This document shows positions 2,719 through 63,360 of a stretch of 64,000 bases of DNA, piece after piece (the first letter of the stretch is position 1; every line of letters starts with the position of its first letter). The DNA lies in contig NC_043002.1 in assembly GCF_006345805.1 (NCBI RefSeq), forward strand, positions 31,744,001-31,808,000, given 5' to 3'. A program made the translations under genes and the position numbers. This DNA is from Octopus sinensis. Taxonomy: Eukaryota. The notes under the pieces were generated by a model. The model was not told the DNA's origin and made no database searches. It worked only from the letters and a program-made list of their open reading frames with translations.

Positions 2719-3240
2719 TTTTTAAGAAGTACACTGTGACGTGGAATGGTCACGGTTATCATTCCATCATTCATGGATCAAAGACACTGGCTCCTCGCTG
2801 AAGAAAATGAAGAGTATAACAATAACAATTAAAGCCCCCCCCCCACGCAACACCGCCAACACCACCAATATCATTTGCCAAAGTCTGTCAACGAAGGGTA
2901 CAAACATCGATGAGGAAACAAAAAAGGAACAATGGTAGCTCTTTAAATATTTGTCAAACAACGAATTCACTCCTTAGTGTTACTCACAAAGGCCAAGATT
3001 ACAGTGAATCAGTGAATGGCCCATTGAAATACTGCACATTATGGCGTTATTGTTCACCATTGTGTACAATATAGACCAAAAACTTTCCATGTTATACATA
3101 AGATGGTATTCGAATCGTGGAATGAAATAATATTTCAATGGTTTGAATCCTGGCATCTGTATTCTTTTATCCTACCCTGTATGCTAGGTGAGACACACAC
3201 ACAAACACACAGACACAGACACACACACATGCACACATAA

Positions 3241-3658
3241 GCGCAGGAGTGGCTGTGTTGTAAGTAGCTTGCTTCCCAGCCACATGGTTCCGGGTTCAGT
3301 CCCTCTGCGTAGCATCTTGGGCAACTGTATTCTACTATAGCCTCGGGCCGATCAAATATTTATGAGTGGATTTGGTAGACGGAATCTGAAAGAAGCCTGT
3401 CGTATATATATATAATATATATATATATATACATGCGTGTGTGTGTGTATGTGTGTTTTGCGTGTTTGTGTCCGTTTTTGTCCACCTACCATCGCTTGAC
3501 AATCGATGTAGTGCTTCACATCTTCCTAACTTCGACAAAAGAACCCGATAAAATAAGTGCTAAGCTTAAAAAGAATACGTCCGATGGTTCGATTTGTTCG
3601 ACTAGTGGCGGAGCTCCAGCATGGCCGCGGTCAAAATGACTGAAACAAGTAAATGAAT
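3241..3658 (+). mobile_element. tRNA-derived SINE family A with internal (TA)n(TG)n tract
   Basis: A-box tggctgtgttgtaag and B-box ggttcagtccc; colinear with the copies at 27827-28285 and 52462-52863. Confidence 0.85.
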
Positions 3659-23330: not shown

Positions 23331-23377
<47 letters not shown>

Positions 23378-23507
23378 ATATGACATGGCCTGGGCCAATG
23401 CCGGCCAGTTTTTTTTTTTTTTTTTTTTTTTTTGGCACACCCCCCCACACACACCCACCCACCTGCCTCCCACACGCACACACCCCCCACCTACCCCCAC
23501 ACAACAC

Positions 23508-24308
23508 TACTCCCAGTTCCTCCGCCTCCGACGTTTGTGCAGCCGCGACCAGGATTTCGAGACCCAATCTCAATACCTGGCCCGCATGTTCAGACTCCGA
23601 GGTTACCCACCCATACTCCTCTCTGATGCCCTCCCGCGCCCGTCGCATCGACCGCACTACCGCCCTGTCTCCTTCCCCCGCCCACCCCACAACCGCACCC
23701 CCTTCCCCCTCCTTTTCCACCCCTCTACCCTACCCCTTCGTCGCAAGATACTACGTGCCTTCCGTCGCCTCCAGCTTGATCCCACCACCCGCCCCATTTT
23801 CCCTAACCTACCCCTGTCCTCTTTCAAACGAGCCCGCAATCTGCGTGACCTCCTGGTCCACAGCACCCTCTCTCCTTCCCCCTCAGCCCCACACGGATCA
23901 TTCCCTTGCTCTAGATCCCGCTGCAACACTTGCCCCTTCATCACCAACACCACCGCTGTCACCGGCTCCAACCTGCACACTGTACGCATTAGGCACTCTT
24001 TTACGTGCACCTCGTCTGGCCTTATTTACTGCATTAAATGCAACCTATGCGGGATGCTGTATGTAGGACAGACGGGACGCCGGTTGTCCGACCGTTTCAC
24101 TGAGCACTTAAGGGACGTTCGCCTACACTCTCTTTCTCCCGTCGCACGCCACTTCCGCTCGGCCGGCCATTCCCTAGATGACATCTCAGTGTTTGGTCTC
24201 GCGCCCCACCAAGGTCGCCCACTTTCCAGGCTCCACTTGGAGCAACGCTACATCTTCACCCTACAAACTACCACCCCACACGGACTTAACACAGCCCCCT
24301 CCTCTTGA
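23508..24308 (+). pseudogene. PLE ORF C-terminus: RT thumb, Cys-rich linker and GIY-YIG endonuclease
   Basis: YSQFLRLRRLCS..RGYP; FKRARNLRDLLV; CSRSRCNTC; LIYCIKCNLCGMLYVGQTGRRLSDRFTEH; VARHF; LEQRYIFTLQT..PHGLN. Expected SRARRIDRTTAL is in another frame (~23630-23680), implying compensating frameshifts. Confidence 0.9.
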
Positions 24309-27255
24309 GATTTGTTTTTTTTTTTTTTTTTTTTTGGCACACCACCCACACACACCCACCCACCTGCCGCCCACACGCACACACCCACCCACCTACCTCC
24401 CACACACACCCAACCACCTACCTCCCACACGCCTGTTCACACACACACATACGTAGACCCATCTACGTACATACATTCACACATTTAATCACACACACTT
24501 ACAGACATACTAGCACACACTAACATACAAACCAACATGCACATACACACACACATACATACATACGCACACACATACATACTTACACACACACACACAC
24601 ACACAGACATACATACACACATACACACACACACAAACTCACACACACACACACCGCACGTACATACTTCACACACACACATGCAAACATACATGTAGGC
24701 ACATACATACATACATGCCCACACATGCACACCCTTACACTGAATGCACACACACATACACCTTTTTGCATCCAGGCAGCCCCCCCTCTTTTCTGCTTTC
24801 CGGTTTTGGCTGATGGATCCTCGGTTCCCGCGTAGCGGGGCGTTCGAGGGCCTTTGCGCTCGCGCGCCTTGGCGCGCGCTGGGGGCTTGGTCGGCCCCTT
24901 GGGCTTGCGTTGTACTGCTTGTGCGTTGTGTGCGTGAGCGCGCTTTGTGCGTGTGGGCTTGCTTCGGATGTGCGCGTACGTATGTATGCATACATACCCA
25001 CACACTCGCATGCATCCCTACCCACATACATACACGCACACCTACTCACACACACACATACACACACATACCTGCACACACACACACATACATACATACA
25101 CATACATACCTACTTCAGACATACACACACACAGACATACACCCATACACTCACACTCACACGCATACACACACACACATACACACGCACACGTACACAT
25201 ACACACACACACACACACCTACATACATACATTACACTTGTATACACACACACTTACATTCATACACACACACACCTACACAGCCATACCCTCACTCAGA
25301 CACACACATCTACCTACACACACACACAAACACACACGGACACACACCCATACATACATACATCTACACACACACGCCTACACACATACATACACACATA
25401 CATAAACACACACACATACACATATACACACATACGCACACACACATATACTTATACACATGCACACACACACACATACATACATACACCCATATACATA
25501 CATACACACATACCCACATACTCCTATACGCACATACATACACAAAGACATACACACTTACACACTCACACAAACATACACACACACATACTTACACACA
25601 CACTCACCTGCTCGCGCACACACATGCATGACAAACACCCATACACTCACACTCACATACGCACACACCAACATAAACACGCACACGCACACCTACACTC
25701 CCACACACATACACACGCACCTACATACACACACGCACGCATACACACGCATACACACATACATTACACACGTACACACACACCCACATACACATGCATA
25801 CACACACACACAAACATGCACGGACACACCCAGACATACACACATACACCTATATACACACGCCCACACACCTACATACACACACACATACACACGCCCA
25901 CACACCTACATACACACACATACATACACACACATACACGGACACACCCACACATACTTACATACATACAACTATACACACACGCCTACACACCTACATA
26001 CACACACATGCATACACACACACATGTACGCACATACACACACATATACGCACATACATATATACCCACACACATGCACACACACACACACATACGCACA
26101 TGCATGCATGCATGCACACGCGCACACCTACACGCATACACACACACACACGCACGTACACATACATACATACACACACGCATACATACACCCATACACA
26201 TACATGCATCCGACACACACATACATACACACTCACACATACATACACACACACCACTCACTCACACACCTGTATGTACGCGCACACACATGCACATACA
26301 CACACTTCCCCACACCACACGTACATACATACACACTCACACACATACACACACACACACACACACGGACATACATCTATGCACACACATACATACACAC
26401 ATACTCACATACATTCATCGACACACACTGCCACCCAGACATACACACAGACACACTCACACATCCACACACATACATACTTACGCGCATACTCGCAGGC
26501 ACGCGCACATACGCACTTGCGCCGGCTCGCGCTGCATACGCGCCGCATACACCTCGCCCTTGGACCTGACGAGACCTCCCGCCCGTTCCTGGGACCGTCG
26601 CGTGTCGTTGGGTTTTCCCACGCCTGTCTCCGCGGTACCACTCTTCCATCTTCCCCTCAGCTGGAGTCCTTTTTCCTTAACACCCCCCCCTTTTTCGTTA
26701 CACACACGCGCACACATATACACACCTTGCTATATATATATACATCACTCTTACACACATTCAATCTACTCGCCATTAATACCACCACGACACTGGACAC
26801 ACACACACACTACTACTCAACACACGCTGGCACGCTACATACGCCCCCACCCCTTCCCCTCCCTCCCTTCCTCCTCCTTCTTTTTCTTACTACTGACCTC
26901 CCTTCCTCCTTCCTCTTTTTCTTACTACTGACCTGTCTGCTAGCTGACCACTAGTCTCCCTACCTCACACGCCTACACACAGACGCACACACTAAACACA
27001 CACATATTTTTTTTTTTTTTCATCTCGCCTCACACACACACATACACACACGCACACGCACACACTCACACATACACACACATCTGTTGGGTTACCAACC
27101 TTGTCTCCACTCTTTTGCCTTTAAAAACCCACTTTGCTCTTGTTATCGTCAACATCCGCCTTTCACCATGTGCAACTCGTAAACACCAGTCGTCTTTTTT
27201 CTCTTTCCCTGTTGCCCGCTCTGGGATCTTTCTTTCCTCTCTCTTCCTTCTTTAT

Positions 27256-27290: not shown

Positions 27291-27826
27291 CTCCCTGCTT
27301 CCATCTCCTGAGCGCCTATTAATAATAATACTGTAATTGTTCCTGTTGTTGTTGTTTTTTGTTTCCCTTTTGGATTAAAAATATATATATATATATATAT
27401 ATATAGTTATACATATACATAGATACTTAGGGATCTTCTGAACTAACTATATAGATACACGTTTACAACGTAAAACAGTAATGTATAATAATTTAAGAAT
27501 ACACCAAATCAATTTAACTATTTCATTTCAAAAACAAAAATACCTGTTACATTTAATTTTAATTATTTTCATAAGGTGCTAAATTCTTCCTTGTATGATT
27601 TCGACCCGGTCATTGATATTGCTCTGAAAATTTGTTCATGAATACCATCTCTTGCATTCTCTCAAGTTGAATTTATTGTAGGCATGTCGAACTAAATCAG
27701 GTTGATTGCATTTTTTCTTAATGATTGTAAAACATCAGTCAGTTTCAGGTTACATTGTTTCCATGTTTACATGGTATATACAATTATACAGAGAACATTT
27801 AAGGATATTAAAAACTGTGCCATATA

Positions 27827-28285
27827 GGCTTAGGAGTGACTGTGTAGTTAGTAGCCTGTTTACCAACCACATAGTTCCGGGTTCAGTCCCACTGCGTGAC
27901 ACTTTGGGCAAGTGTCTTCTACTATAGCCTCGGGTCGACCAAAACCTCGGATGTGAGTGGATTTGGTAGACGGATACTGAAAGAAGCCCGTCGTATATAT
28001 ATATATATATATATAGATATGTGCGTGTGTGTGTGTGTGTGTTGTGTGTGTGTATGTGTATGTGTTTGTGTGTCTGTGTTTGGCCCCCCCAACATCGCTT
28101 GACAACCGATGCTGGTGTGTTAACGTCACCGTACCCTAGCGGTTCAGCAAAAGAAACCGATACAATACGTACTAGGCTTACAAATAATAAGTCCTGGGGT
28201 CGATTTACTCGACTAAAGGCTGTGCTCCAGCATGGACACAGTCAAATGATTGAAGCAAGTAAAAGAGTAAAAAAGTAAAGAGTAA
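27827..28285 (+). mobile_element. SINE family A, full length
   Basis: Head ggcttaggagtgactgtgtag..ggttcagtcccactgcg; internal microsatellite; tail gaagcaagtaaaagagtaaa. Confidence 0.9.
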
Positions 28286-28316: not shown

Positions 28317-29515
28317 CGAGGTGGTATAAAAAGTTCCTGGACTAATTCTGTAGCGCGCCAACAGATAGCAGCACATAATTGCGTGCGCAGTGAGAGCTTG
28401 AAGTGACTTTCATGAGGCACTGTGCCTAGCGGCATCACTGTGTTTACTTTAGAAGTTGATAAATTTGTGCTGTTGTCTGCAATTTTGTCATCGACAGGAA
28501 AAAAGTGCAAACGAAATTTTGCGTTAAACTTGGAAAGACCTTGAGCATGATTCGGCAAGCTTAAGGCGTCGAGTCAAAATGACACGGGTGCTTCGAAAAA
28601 GGAGGAAAGTCCCTGGAAGACAATAAGCGATGTAAAAGACCTGCCACGAGCGTCACCCACGGAAATATGTAGAAAATTCATCAGCTTATGCATGCCGATC
28701 GTCGGAGGACAATCAATGACATTGCAGATGCTGCTAGTATGCCGTGTGGGTCTGTGCAGGCAATTTTAACGTCTGAATTGTACTTGCAGCGTGTCTCTAC
28801 CAAGTTTTTCTTCCGACTGCTGACCACTCAGCAGAAAGAACATAACTTTGAAGTCTGTCAAGACCTCCGTCATCCTTCATGTCGAGGATTATCATCGGTA
28901 GAAGGGTCTACGGGTACTACACTGAGACGAATCACTCGGCACAATGGAAGAGCCTTTCATCTTTACGACCGAAAAAGGCACGACAGAGACACAGATCAAT
29001 CAAGAGCATGCTCATCATTTTATTGTGCATCGGGTATTCGTCTCCCGGGGTTAAACCATCCATGAACAGTTCTACTGCGACGTTTCACAGTGTCCGAGGG
29101 AGGACATTCAGCGAAAGGGACCAGATCTGTGGAACACGAAGAACTAGATTCTTCTCGACGGCAATGCACTTTGTCATCGAGCTTTACTCACTCGTGAGTT
29201 TCTCGCCAAAAAACATGGTATCACTTCCGCACCCGCCCTACTTGACAGATTTAGCACCTGCGGATTTCCACCTTTTCCGCAAGACGGAAATGCAGCTCAA
29301 AGGTCACCGTTTTAATACCGTTGTCAAGATCCAGAGTGAATCACAGAAGATCCTCGACTGGCTTACGAAAAACGACTTTCAGGCCACATTTCAAATGTGG
29401 CACGAACGTTAGGACTGCTGCGCAAGGTGACTGTTTTGAAGGACAAGGTGTAAAAATTAGGTAAATAAAGTTTTATTAAACCTAACTAGTTTAGGAAGGT
29501 TTTAATGCCAATTCG
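28317..29515 (+). mobile_element. Full-length decayed mariner
   Basis: TIRs cgaggtggtataaaaagttcctggactaatt / aactagtttaggaaggttttaatgccaattcg; DRRRTINDIA and HPPYLTDLAPADFHLF motifs; frameshifted. Confidence 0.9.
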
Positions 29516-36071: not shown

Positions 36072-36690
36072 GCACAGAAGTGGGTATTAGTAATGGACAC
36101 TACATATTTTACTTTTATTGAAGTAAATTTTCTTTACACCTGCTTCTTGTACTTATTACAGTTTCTGAATTTACTCCAATAATGGAAAATAGGAAAGAAT
36201 CATTATTTATATCCTGTGTGGTATTTCTCTCTGTCTAAAACCAGTTTGAGTGGAGCGCCACCATGGATTTGCGACATAGAATGGAGATGAAATATAGCCT
36301 CAGGTTCTGCCATTAGGATACATGGATGTTTTACTCATCTGAACAATGTCTTAGCCTGCTACGCCAAAAGAAATCTCTGAAGTGTTACGTCCGGATTGAT
36401 AACCCATACCAATAACTATATTCATACATACATACATACATACATACATACATACATACATACATACATACATACATACATACATACATACATTCATACA
36501 TACATACATACATACAGACATACATACATACTACATACATACATACAATACATACATACATACATACATACAACATACATACTACATACATACATACATA
36601 CATACATACAATACATACATACATACATACATACATACATACATACATACATACATACATACATACATACATACATACATACATACATAC

Positions 36691-36972
36691 AGAGCGTCGG
36701 CTGCGGGGTCATTCCGAAAAGCTCTACCTGCGACGGTTTCATCTCAATCGAAGGAGAGGAGCTTTCTCCGTCCGGGTTGCGGATCCGTGGAACAAGCTGC
36801 CAGACGAGATGGTGAAGATGCCGACGACCGCTTTGTTCAAAGCCTCCCTGGACCTCAAGTGGCCTGAACTCTTTGCATGAACACCACTCTGTACTTAACT
36901 CCATGTCCCCCTACATGGCCTTGCTATTTGCTTTTGAGCCAAATTAACCAACTAACTAACTAACTAACTAAC
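36691..36972 (+). mobile_element. 5'-truncated CR1-type LINE 3' end with (CTAA)n tail
   Basis: 36692-36880 reads ERRLRGHSEKLYLRRFHLNRRRGAFSVRVADPWNKLPDEMVKMPTTALFKASLDLKWPELFA*; embedded in (CATA)n. Confidence 0.85.
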
Positions 36973-50368: not shown

Positions 50369-50407
50369 GGAGTGTAGGAGTGGCTGTGTGGTAAGTAGCT
50401 TGTTTAC
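50369..50407 (+). mobile_element. 5' head of a SINE family A copy, split by an insertion
   Basis: ggagtgtaggagtggctgtgtggtaagtagcttgtttac; SINE resumes at 52462. Confidence 0.85.
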
Positions 50408-52461
50408 CCAGAATGCAACACTAGTTGGTCTGGACTGTTACAGTGAGCAGATGTGAGTTTCGGCTCCGCGAATAGAAAAAAAAGAGCAAAAAGAAATATT
50501 GTCAATTATGGCTCGCTATAGTGAGCAAAATACTGGGTTCTCATCACCGTAACGGTGAGTTGAGAATTTTTTTGAAAATTCTTCTTGTGAATTCTAGTGG
50601 ACGTATCTCGCCAGAAAAATAAGAAGAAGCCATTTGGATTACCTTTTTGGAGTATTATACAAAGAATTCCTGTCTGTGCTATTTGTGAGGTGTTTCTTTT
50701 ACTTTTCCCTTCTTCTATTTTTTCTTTCTTTCTAAATTTTGGTTCATTCTTTTCAGTACTTTAATTTCAGTTTCCTGCCCTCCTCTTTTATTTTGTTTTA
50801 TTTTTATTCGGTTTAATTTTTTGGCAGACTGTCTTTTGAACTACTTTGGAACTGTTTTTTGACATGGCAGAGAAGGAACTTAAAAAGAAAAACTCTGTCT
50901 TAGAGTGGGTAATTAACCCGCCTAAGCAATGGTTAAAAGATATGGGGGAGAAGACGGTGGTACTTAGAACGTATTCTAAATTTCTTAATTCCATCACCGT
51001 CTTCCCAAAACAAGTCATAAAAAATGAACTTAAAGAACATTTGTCCTCTGTAAAATATATATCCCGTGGTGTCAAACATGCAACCGTATGGTTGCTGTTT
51101 GACAATGGGGAAAAGGCTCGCCAGTTTGCGAGTCAGCCTTTAGAAGGCAAGGAAATTCTATTTCTCCCGTCATATTGTGGAAGAAAATTAATACGAGCCT
51201 TGGTATGTGGGCTCCCCCCGAGCACCGAAGCGGATTGGATTGAAGATACCATACAACGGGGACTGGGGGATGGCGGACCCAGGCTCTTAAATGTAAGAGT
51301 ATTGCTGGCGGTCGATTGGGAAGGGTCAAAAGCGATTTTGACCCTGTGGACCCCATCGGCCGCAACAGAACTGGTTTTTCCAGACTTCTTGAAAATGGCT
51401 GGCTGCAGGTATACGGTGATACTTGAGGTACGTCCCCCAAATGTCACTCGTGCCTGCAGCCAGGCCACATTAAAAGGAACTGCCCCCAGGACCATGTTAA
51501 GGTCCTGGAACAGTCACTAGATGCCACCTTCCCTACCCGGTCGAAGGGAGAGGTGGATGTGGTCGAGGAGGCTTCAGCCGCCTCAACTCAAAAAGGATTA
51601 AAAAGGAAGAAGGCGAGCAACAATAGTTGCCCGCCGAAGGAAGCTAAGGCTTCGGAAGGCGGGGGAGAGTCTTCGGACAAAGCGGAAGAGCTCCACTCTC
51701 CCGAAGCCAGGAAGAAAAGAAAAAGAAGAAGGAAGAAGAACGGGTCATCTCAGCGGGGAGATGATGTGTCGACTGCACGTCCCGAAGTTGTGCCACCCAC
51801 GGTGGAAGAAACCACCCCCACCCTTAAAGATGATCAATTAATTATCTTTTTCTACAAGGGCAGGGAGGTGGAAAAAATAGTAGAAGAACACAAAGAAACA
51901 GTAGATATGCCCTTCACACGGGATCCCGAATGGCCTCCGCAGATAGCTGTGGAGGTCATAAAGTTTCCCTTGTGGGAAAGGCTTAAAGGATTTGGGGAGG
52001 AGTGTCGCATATAGCCGGGTGGCCCTTACACGATTTACATGTCCTGCATGAGTGAGGCATGGGAAATGGCGGGATACAGGAACTCAAGCGGCATTGAAGA
52101 TAATGATGAATATATCGATGGATATATCGAAGAGTAGGAGGTGAAAGACCCTCGTTACAGGGTTTGAGACCTCATCTTATTGGATTATTTTGTAGTGGTT
52201 TATAACCTCAATTTTGTGCTTTAAGAAAGAAAAAAAAAGAAAACATGTTAAGTAAGAGGTTTTAGTGCCTTCTCCGTGTAAGAGGTTCGAAACCTCATAT
52301 TGATTTAAAAAAAAAAAGAAAATATGTTTTCGAGAAAAATCCAATCGGCGGGTGTTGGGTTTCGTCTCTCATTTATTCATTATATTTCATTTTCATTCAT
52401 TAATGTATTTGTCCAGCCCGCAAAGCTCTTTGTACTATCTATATGACAAATTTATGAAATA
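50408..52461 (+). mobile_element. ORF1-only non-autonomous L1/Tx1-like retroelement
   Basis: 15-bp TSD AAGTAGCTTG(T/C)TTAC at 50393-50407 and 52462-52476; 5' UTR, single gag-like ORF, 3' UTR ending in AATAAA. Confidence 0.8.
50864..52137 (+). pseudogene. L1/Tx1-type ORF1 (gag-like, CCHC zinc knuckle), ~420 aa when reconstructed
   Basis: ORFs 50846-51520 and 51553-52014 join through a 1-nt shift at ~51434-51441, giving RPP-KCHSCLQPGHIKRNCP (CX2CX4HX4C, 51442-51483); basic KKRKRRRKK; the frame stays open 40 codons past TAG 52012-52014. Confidence 0.8.
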
Positions 52462-52614
52462 AAGTAGCTTGCTTACGAACCACATGGTTCCGGGTTCAGT
52501 CTCACTGCGTGGCAACTTGGGCAAGTGTCTTCTACTATAACCTCGGGCCGACCAAAGCCTTGTGAGTGGATTTGGTTGGCGGAAACTGAAAGAAGCCCGT
52601 CGTATATATGTATA

Positions 52615-52654
<40 letters not shown>

Positions 52655-52863
52655 TGTGTCTGCGTTTGTCCCTCAACATCGCTTGACAACCGATGCTGTT
52701 GTGTTTACGTCCCCGTAACTTAGCGCTTCGGCAAAAGGGACTGATAGAATAAGTACTAGGCTTACAAAGAATAAGTCCTGGTGTTGATTTGCTCGACTAA
52801 AGACAGTGCTCCAGCATGGCCACAGTGAAATGACTGAAACAAGTGAAAGAGAGAAAAGAGTAA
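52462..52863 (+). mobile_element. Remainder of the split SINE family A copy
   Basis: aagtagcttgcttacgaaccacatggttccgggttcagtc... through gaaacaagtgaaagagagaaaagagtaa. Confidence 0.9.
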
Positions 52864-62287: not shown

Positions 62288-62392
62288 AGCAAAGGCGGAG
62301 GTATTGTGTTCAGTCGTGTTCGTTTGTTTGTTTATCCGAGGACAAGATATCTCAAGAACCGCTGGACGGATTAGGATGAAACTTTCAAGGAT
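62288..62392 (+). mobile_element. Helentron-associated (DINE-1/HINE-like) 5' fragment
   Basis: aaggcggaggtattgtgttc..(gttt)n..caagatatctcaagaaccgctggacggatt..gatgaaact. Confidence 0.6.
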
Positions 62393-63360
62393 GCATCCCA
62401 CAGGATTTTGGAATTCTCATTTTTGGTATCTCCTTCTGGAGTTTTCGCATTCCACGTCTTTGCTCCTTGTAGGATGTGATTTCCATAAAGCTCCTTATGA
62501 CCCATTCTTGTCACAATGTCATGGCGTCTTTTGTATTCGCGTTGTGCCAATTTCGCGCATTCACTAACGATGTGCCATACTATTTCATCCCTCTCATCAC
62601 ACATTCTGCATTTGTCACTATCGGTAGTGTTGTCTATTCTGCCCTTCATACAGTTGGTCCTTACCGTTTGTTCCTGAGTTGTGCATATGAGTGCTTCTGT
62701 CTCTGTCTTCAGGTCCCTATTCCTCATCCATAGCCACCGGTCCTTCGTATGTGTCCTGGCGTTCACATCTCTTGCAAATTGACCGTACATTTTCTTTTCC
62801 ATCCATGCTTTTTTTTTTCATTTCTTATTAAAATTTTTCTTTCGTTGCACAATTTTTAATTTTGATGACACCGGCTTTCATCATATGTTTCAACAGTGGC
62901 TCTACGATATGTTTTATATACCACACTAAGCTGTTTTCCATTGCTTCGATACAGTCCTGGCAACTGACCAAACCTCTCCAACTCTATCTTCTAGACAGGT
63001 ATAGCCTATCGGTGTTTTTCTTAGGGTGGAAGAATCCGTGTACTGTCAACATTTTTTTCTGGTCTTGGTACCCATTTTCTTCATTTCTCTCTTTTGCCGT
63101 TTTATATTTCCAGCTCCATACCGAAGTGATGCCCATGTATTAACTGCTTGAATTTTATTCCATCCAATCAATTTTCAGCGCAACACCAACCTCAGTCTTC
63201 AGACATACTCCATCCTCAGTTGCTCTTTCATTTCTTTTTCCATTATCTCGTTGAAATCTTGTACACCAAGGTATTTGTATCTTTCCGTTTCAGTTTGTAA
63301 TTTAAAATGCCTCACTTGCGCTAAATATGTGAGTTCGCCTGCAAATATCCTTGATAATTT
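62393..63360 (-). mobile_element. R4/Dong-clade LINE fragment (thumb and CCHC finger)
   Basis: YKYLGV; MYGQF; ETEALICTTQEQ; CRMCDERDEIVWHIVSEC..LAQREYKRRHD; KILWD. Confidence 0.9.

Follow-up and report, generated by a model that had tools for sequence, protein, structure and literature searches.

The insert at positions 50408-52461 of the window, the whole stretch of 64,000 nucleotides of Octopus sinensis DNA analysed here (NC_043002.1), is read with a probability of roughly 0.85 as a decayed copy from an old lineage of ORF1-only LINEs (half-LINEs) whose fixed site of 15 bp lies in the head of an abundant SINE and which is likely copied by the endonuclease (EN) and reverse transcriptase (RT) of a 5.4-kb, probably Tx1-clade LINE using the same site. 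The family, its fixed site, the independent insertion of its copies, the partner LINE, a covarying terminal hairpin common to both elements and purifying selection on ORF1 were observed in the genome. Beyond this, we lean towards a Tx1-type lineage that has been free of ORF2 long enough for synonymous saturation, comprises many subfamilies between which C-terminal domains and 5' ends are swapped, is more numerous than its helper at the common site and tracks it only through a 37-nt 3' end.

The insert is 2054 bp long and is bracketed by the duplication AAGTAGCTTG(T/C)TTAC (Table 1), which confirms the 15-bp duplication reported in the first-pass annotation of the window. The proposed division into a 5' UTR of ~455 bp, one ORF of ~420 aa and a 3' UTR of ~325 bp was also recovered: the leader measures 456 bp, the trailer 324 bp, and the broken frame, from an ATG at 50864 to a stop at 52135-52137, comprises 1271 nt, one base short of 424 codons. 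A poly(A) tail is lacking at the 3' terminus of the insert and of its family. The AATAAA described as the end of the 3' UTR is present but straddles the 3' junction; because its last two A's can be assigned to the element or to the target, the length of the duplication is 13-15 bp.

Both lesions suspected in ORF1 are damage of the window copy. The frameshift beside the CCHC knuckle is private, with the window copy one base shorter than the commonest form among 30 copies, and at 52012-52014, 16 of the 18 family copies in which the motif was located (in 12 of 30 it was not) have TGG in place of the TAG. The knuckle itself scored above the Pfam cut-off (PF00098, 21.6 vs 20.8 bits), and the RRM region of the focal ORF1 was not recognised by the same kind of search. 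Repeat and tandem finders did not report the focal duplication among their top families, and Rfam returned only microsatellite noise around the focal element and no match at the L106 junction, where a U1-like sequence had been suspected. An index search listed 14 entries from four organism codes (A-D) that share 0.21-0.41 of the element's sequence words, none of them listed as RNA. Contigs of two sequencing runs guessed to be RNA (codes C and D) cover the element, a coverage that cannot show transcription.

Table 1. Features of the focal insert and its host SINE, in positions of the window.
Feature	Position	Strand	Basis
Head of host SINE, 5' part, upstream of the insertion, with A-box-like TGGCTGTGTGG	50373..50392	+	Same sequence before 26 of 30 family copies
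Target-site duplication, 5' copy, 15 bp	50393..50407	+	Sequence comparison
5' UTR, likely internal promoter, swapped between subfamilies	50408..50863	+	L023/L027 and L065/L066 comparisons
Broken ORF1, with two predicted RRMs, a CCHC knuckle, a disordered basic linker and a C-terminal domain particular to the family	50864..52137	+	Fold from intact sister L137
ORF1 lesions of the window copy: one private frameshift and one premature stop	within 50864..52137	+	
3' UTR without poly(A) tail	52138..52461	+	
Terminal 4-bp hairpin, common to half-LINE and autonomous partner; one mismatch in the window copy	52435..52447	+	
Target-site duplication, 3' copy	52462..52476	+	
Remainder of host SINE: B-box-like GGTTCAGTC, CCTTGGGCAAG-type motif, internal microsatellite, tail	52477..52860	+	

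A DNA search of the genome, in which the best 40 of 2146 candidates were scored, yielded at least 40 copies that are 88-97% identical and lie on many contigs, bearing out the multicopy, non-autonomous ORF1-only LINE family that had been postulated from the single copy. Similarity to EN or RT, found lacking in the window copy at first pass, was absent from all 30 copies of the focal family and from 39 further half-type hits. None of the 30 closest copies has an intact ORF1. Of the 30 copies fetched, 29 terminate on the 3' side at AAGTAGCTTGCTTAC or a near variant of it, the remaining one having lost its 3' end; on the 5' side, the same SINE head precedes 26, a related element one, and a degenerate or rearranged head the other three. 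Genome-wide, an exact AAGTAG directly follows 67 of 77 exact focal 3' ends. The filled 3' junction pattern has 244 exact matches (reversed-pattern control: 0), and the uninterrupted target is present at 26,155 exact empty sites.

The flanks of the half-LINE are the two halves of one abundant SINE, a host and common target that the first-pass annotation had missed. Different duplications had been predicted for independent copies; instead, the same duplication is found at nearly every copy because the element is specific for one site of the SINE. Within the window, uninterrupted copies of the host SINE lie at ~3238-3650 (+) and ~27750-28240 (-). ARAGORN and Rfam gave no tRNA match for the SINE head. 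We take two of its motifs to be A- and B-box-like, and these and the CORE-like motif were judged by eye. The host SINE may be a tRNA-derived element of the CORE type such as OR1 or OR2, which are named as octopus CORE-SINEs.

Half-LINE copies insert independently and not as a composite with the SINE. At 79 junction loci, 15 inserts shorter than 1.6 kb begin directly behind the SINE head; at least 12 of them are 5'-truncated (25-733 bp, with different breakpoints), and the remainder are an internal deletion, an insert whose junction contains a second SINE and one with an unidentified 5' end. Five further 5'-truncated inserts behind the SINE head were found beyond this set. The family accordingly displays hallmarks of target-primed reverse transcription (TPRT), namely a target duplication, a fixed 3' end and variable 5' truncation. 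Pairwise distances are 12.6% for the host SINE vs 5.6% for the half-LINE insert and are uncorrelated (rho -0.01); for the partner LINE the corresponding values are 11.5% and 1.1%. Median divergence from column majorities is 6.4% for the host SINE vs 3.0% for the insert. Tandem arrays with one shared duplication join two half-LINEs (L080) or a full-length element and a half-LINE (L146, L162-163). Variants common to both target copies were observed three times in 24 copies (p=0.013), a modest excess over chance in a test that is partly confounded by RNA-templated 5' ends and whose partner version is misregistered by junction slips. In the array at G000:C8:56.503-56.526 Mb (L161-L163), a half-LINE is followed by two partner pieces, and another half-LINE lies 13 kb upstream.

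An autonomous element with the same 3' end, the search for which had been recommended at first pass, was found in the form of a 5.44-kb LINE with Exo_endo_phos (APE endonuclease), RVT_1 and zf-RVT domains at the same SINE site. Its copies are mostly 98-99% identical among the best matches, and 20 of 20 copies picked by their ORF2 sequence end at the same target. One copy (L146) has kept both ORFs (ORF1 467 aa, ORF2 1130 aa) and is directly followed by a half-LINE; two others (L092, L104) are internally deleted. At the DNA level, partner and half-LINE have the last ~37 nt in common and otherwise almost nothing. By 3' UTR type, 60 consecutive junction loci comprise 45 half-LINEs, 7 partners, 3 of a third type and 5 unclassified, a ratio that overstates the lead of the half-LINE because young partner copies commonly have the CTAAC host allele, which the junction pattern does not match. 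The 5' target copy contains CTAAC in 15 of 16 full-length partner copies, in six of which the 3' copy is another allele; a 1-nt slip occurs in 6 of the 15 CTAAC-bearing copies. Inr/DPE-like spacing (about 26-28 nt) was seen in only about 6 of 26 5' ends and was not relied on.

The common 37-nt end contains a 4-bp hairpin, in which 91% of cells are paired over 74 distinct ends. Its covariation score of 0.242 was reached by 0 of 500 shuffles and exceeded all slid controls, for a stem of four pairs only and with a shuffle control that ignores descent. Three of the four pairs are changed on both sides, a count that 83 of 500 shuffles also reached. One pair is U-A in the focal subfamily vs C-G in others. 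The hairpin is likely the recognition signal of ORF2p.

The closest solved structure to the partner ORF2 is human L1 ORF2p (E=3e-65), with R2 at 6e-20, and searches for relatives of the partner RT returned no named Tx1 reference among the matches. An APE endonuclease, RT and C-terminal zinc motif together with an RRM/CCHC ORF1 are Tx1-like features that are not exclusive to Tx1, and the partner also has a target sequence preference, which is common in this clade and not obligatory. RRM/CCHC ORF1s have been described as consistent with Tx1 (PMC5203782). The partner LINE is likely a member of the Tx1 clade, a placement supported by related LINEs of the genome that lie at a second SINE head and at (TC)n, which Kibi also targets.

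These related elements include full-length LINEs in the head of a second abundant SINE (L218 and L219, at G000:C9:56.69 Mb and C1:190.64 Mb), with an EN 51-56% identical to that of the partner and the duplication CGTATTTCGTCTG(CC), and a LINE with (TC)n, the target reported for Kibi, at both ends (L220, G000:C8:37.62 Mb). The tail of the second SINE consists of TTTGTCTGTCCTTGTTTGTCCCCTC, a hairpin and then AAAGAAATA (L089, L084, downstream of L218, and at ~40487 of the window); because it resembles the 3' ends of the related LINEs, this SINE is likely mobilised by a Tx1-type LINE. Elsewhere in the window, a 324-aa frame at 23334-24308 (+) resembles a Penelope-like element in its C-terminal portion, with RT and GIY-YIG, and we take fragments at 28673-29412 (-), 36416-36910 and 62371-62817 (-) to resemble Mariner transposase and LINE ORF2 C-termini, in each case by eye.

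A sister subfamily of the focal family has an open 400-aa ORF1 (L137), and at least three more copies have the same 434-codon open frame. The AlphaFold model of L137, which is weak overall (pLDDT 58, pTM 0.41), contains two beta-alpha domains matching tandem RRMs (TM about 0.35, best E=7e-5); besides these it has the knuckle, a linker that is basic and disordered, and a small domain at the C-terminus. The Tx1/L1-type ORF1 recognised at first pass was borne out. Half-LINE and partner ORF1 are 28% identical over 200 residues (E=2e-19), and their C-terminal domains were not alignable by hhalign profile comparison (probability 0.2%). Apart from the octopus LOC115225585 protein, relatives of ORF1 over most of the domain reach only 24-31% identity, and the named ones are octopod proteins. 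A quick, midpoint-rooted ORF1 tree of 52 rows separated 27 half-type from 25 autonomous-type sequences by ~2 changes per site (SH-aLRT 100).

Selection on ORF1 was measured among the copies, as had been advised. In the focal family, omega was 0.90 for private variants vs 0.21 for variants shared by at least four copies (Fisher p=1e-4), and 0.13 for shared variants in the RRM-knuckle part. Between half-LINE subfamilies, omega ranged from 0.07 to 0.27 at a dS of mostly 1-3. The half-LINE ORF1 is under purifying selection, and the private variants of the focal family look neutral.

Two copies combine the focal body with another 5' end (L023/L027), and two others have a common body and different 5' ends (L065, L066). 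Mosaic subfamilies have exchanged N-terminal halves, C-terminal domains and 5' UTRs (L137 vs L066/L037; L023/L027 vs L118; L065 vs L066). The third 3' UTR type at the same target is represented by L084, L112 and L130. In L084, an ORF1-only copy of 1.9 kb, ORF1 falls on the autonomous side, possibly a second origin of the ORF1-only form; L084 carries TTCCGGTTACCCAGA near its 5' end in common with some focal copies. Autonomous-type ORF1s also stand behind the SINE head in L211 and L213, with no EN or RT in the fetched stretch.

Three other explanations were weighed. The half-LINEs could have arisen repeatedly and fairly recently by internal deletion from an autonomous LINE with the same ORF1 type, unsampled or recently extinct, in which case the constraint on ORF1 would date from the time when ORF2 was attached. 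The internally deleted partner copies, together with the ORF1-only L084 on the autonomous side, imply that such losses recur, and an ORF2-bearing sibling could be missed by an ORF1 search in which the best 150 of 12,163 first-look candidates were scored and 39 opened (nine of these without a 3' target within the fetched stretch). Against this, ORF2, which the first-pass annotation had named as something to look for at the same junction in other copies, was found in 0 of 69 opened half-type copies; subfamilies at synonymous saturation have a common 3' UTR type that is distinct from that of the partner; and purifying selection acts within the focal ORF1-only family itself. We consider recent deletion unlikely, although clearly ahead of the two remaining explanations.

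A single insertion might have given rise to a SINE with cargo that moves as a unit via the SINE's own partner, so that identical duplications are inherited. This would agree with the same flanks and the same duplication at nearly all copies, yet it is largely refuted, since the SINE head is retained in 5'-truncated copies, hosts are older than their inserts and uncorrelated with them, and more than one family is found at this site, in tandem as well; we rate it as very improbable. The lowest probability, close to nil, falls to processed pseudogenes of a spliced host RRM/CCHC gene of the ZCCHC3 kind, a match to a spliced host gene being the other possibility raised at first pass. Neighbours in the ESM Atlas do include ZCCHC3 RBD clusters (score 0.91), and one annotated octopus protein is 62% identical. 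The pseudogene reading is removed, however, because this sole close database protein maps in one unspliced frame to an element copy that is 3'-truncated and preceded by the same SINE head; moreover, the site is fixed, ORF1 is homologous to that of the partner, and neither a spliced parent gene nor a poly(A) tail was found. The protein, LOC115225585 (three accessions), matches the genome at 100% at G000:C28:4.51 Mb (L168/L221). Its knuckle lacks the first Cys, and it is either a mis-annotation or a co-opted copy; the octopus annotation thus contains at least one "gene" that is a half-LINE copy.

Returning to the old ORF1-only lineage, we infer indirectly, from the common target, the terminal hairpin and the tandem arrays, that the half-LINE is mobilised in trans by partner ORF2p. 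Pol II transcription would start within the 5' target copy or a short way upstream of it, because CTAAC is almost invariably found there in full-length partner copies, also opposite a different 3' allele. The AATAAA, completed by the target, would place the end of the RNA slightly within the downstream copy of the target. In cis, the half-LINE's own ORF1p would coat the RNA; the 3' hairpin would be bound by partner ORF2p, which would nick the bottom strand and prime reverse transcription. The target-like tail of the RNA would anneal to the nicked strand, which could account for the precise, tail-less 3' junction, and a second nick 15 nt away would make the duplication. As the duplication regenerates the target, tandem arrays are possible. 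Insertion separates the A- and B-box-like motifs of the SINE and would therefore switch off the SINE copy concerned while costing the host little. Cotranscription with a target can strengthen specific integration (PMC4494074).

If the reading as a long-standing ORF2-free lineage of Tx1 type is correct, the family would be the first Tx1 derivative to encode ORF1 only, and the pair of elements the first LINE system specialised on one SINE-head site. Our literature search found no Tx1-derived ORF1-only family and no SINE-head-targeting LINE; Repbase and Dfam were outside its scope, and repeat libraries (e.g. PMC13282606) may hold them. In O. vulgaris 13 recently active L1-Tx1 families have been described (PMC13282606), and a term search of the available text of that source returned no instance of "target", "nested" or "ORF1". 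The system would form a three-tier ecology of SINE, LINE and half-LINE, with a second SINE targeted by a sister LINE, in which the half-LINE, a parasite of a parasite, likely borrows the copying enzyme of a full-length relative at the same spot. It would allow the question of why ORF1 is retained by a non-autonomous retroelement to be put to a natural test: because helper and rider share a target and the 37-nt end and have such dissimilar ORF1s, cis preference and ORF1p-ORF2p compatibility are testable by swaps, and the system can be assayed since open-frame copies exist for both members (L137, L146). It would further add the SINE head to the known safe-haven targets, show that related LINEs have radiated within one genome with switches of target (two SINE heads, one microsatellite), and make the partner a source of a new sequence-specific APE endonuclease.

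With full-length copies that carry ORF1 without ORF2, and with ORF1 under purifying selection, the half-LINE belongs to the ORF1-present type of non-autonomous LINE. HAL1, a member of this type, is tailed and is not known to be targeted, whereas the octopus half-LINE has a fixed target and no poly(A) tail. HAL1 proper, with its type II coiled coil-RRM-CTD ORF1, was ruled out: there was no Transposase_22 match, and a CCHC knuckle and two predicted RRMs are present instead. The type has been described for HeT-A (Jockey), HAL1 (L1) and Ag-Sponge (CR1) (PMC5786205); the statement at first pass that ORF1-only derivatives are known mainly from mammals was wrong, HeT-A and Ag-Sponge being from insects. 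HAL1 is similar in being non-autonomous and encoding ORF1p only, and it arose several times (PMC5753468); it differs in being L1-derived, and mammalian L1 ORF1p is typically type II (PMC5203782), whereas the octopus ORF1 with RRM and CCHC is type I-like. HeT-A and the other Drosophila telomeric elements, about 40% of whose families are ORF1-only, likewise form tandem arrays mixed with ORF2-bearing partners (PMC13534243). HeT-A, however, belongs to the Jockey clade and is added at chromosome ends, whereas the octopus half-LINE lies in internal sequence, makes a duplication and has no known host benefit. Ag-Sponge of Anopheles is also an invertebrate ORF1-encoding non-autonomous LINE, thought to be the product of an internal deletion; it is of another clade (CR1), and no target specificity is stated in the available text of its source. 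In contrast to such a product, the octopus half-LINE has almost no nucleotide similarity left to its partner.

The R2/R1 SIDEs of Drosophila are non-coding. They resemble the half-LINE in being non-autonomous and site-specific and in hijacking a partner via the 3' UTR (PMC3414825), and differ in that they derive from R2/R1, target 28S rDNA and rely on cotranscription with it. Targeting of other repeats is established for Tx1-clade LINEs, with Tx1L inserting into Tx1D, Tx1-Mar and SINEU into Mariner-N4 and Kibi into (TC)n (PMC4494074; targeting of other transposons also in PMC6719617), and in these systems, too, non-autonomous riders share the target of their helper (PMC4494074). The targets reported in the available text of these sources are DNA and LTR transposons, small-RNA genes, satellites and microsatellites, with no SINE head among them; SINEU, the rider reported, has a poly(A) tail and is non-coding, whereas the octopus rider encodes ORF1 and has no tail. 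The half-LINE works like HeT-A or HAL1 riding a Tx1-like helper, and it is not HAL1.
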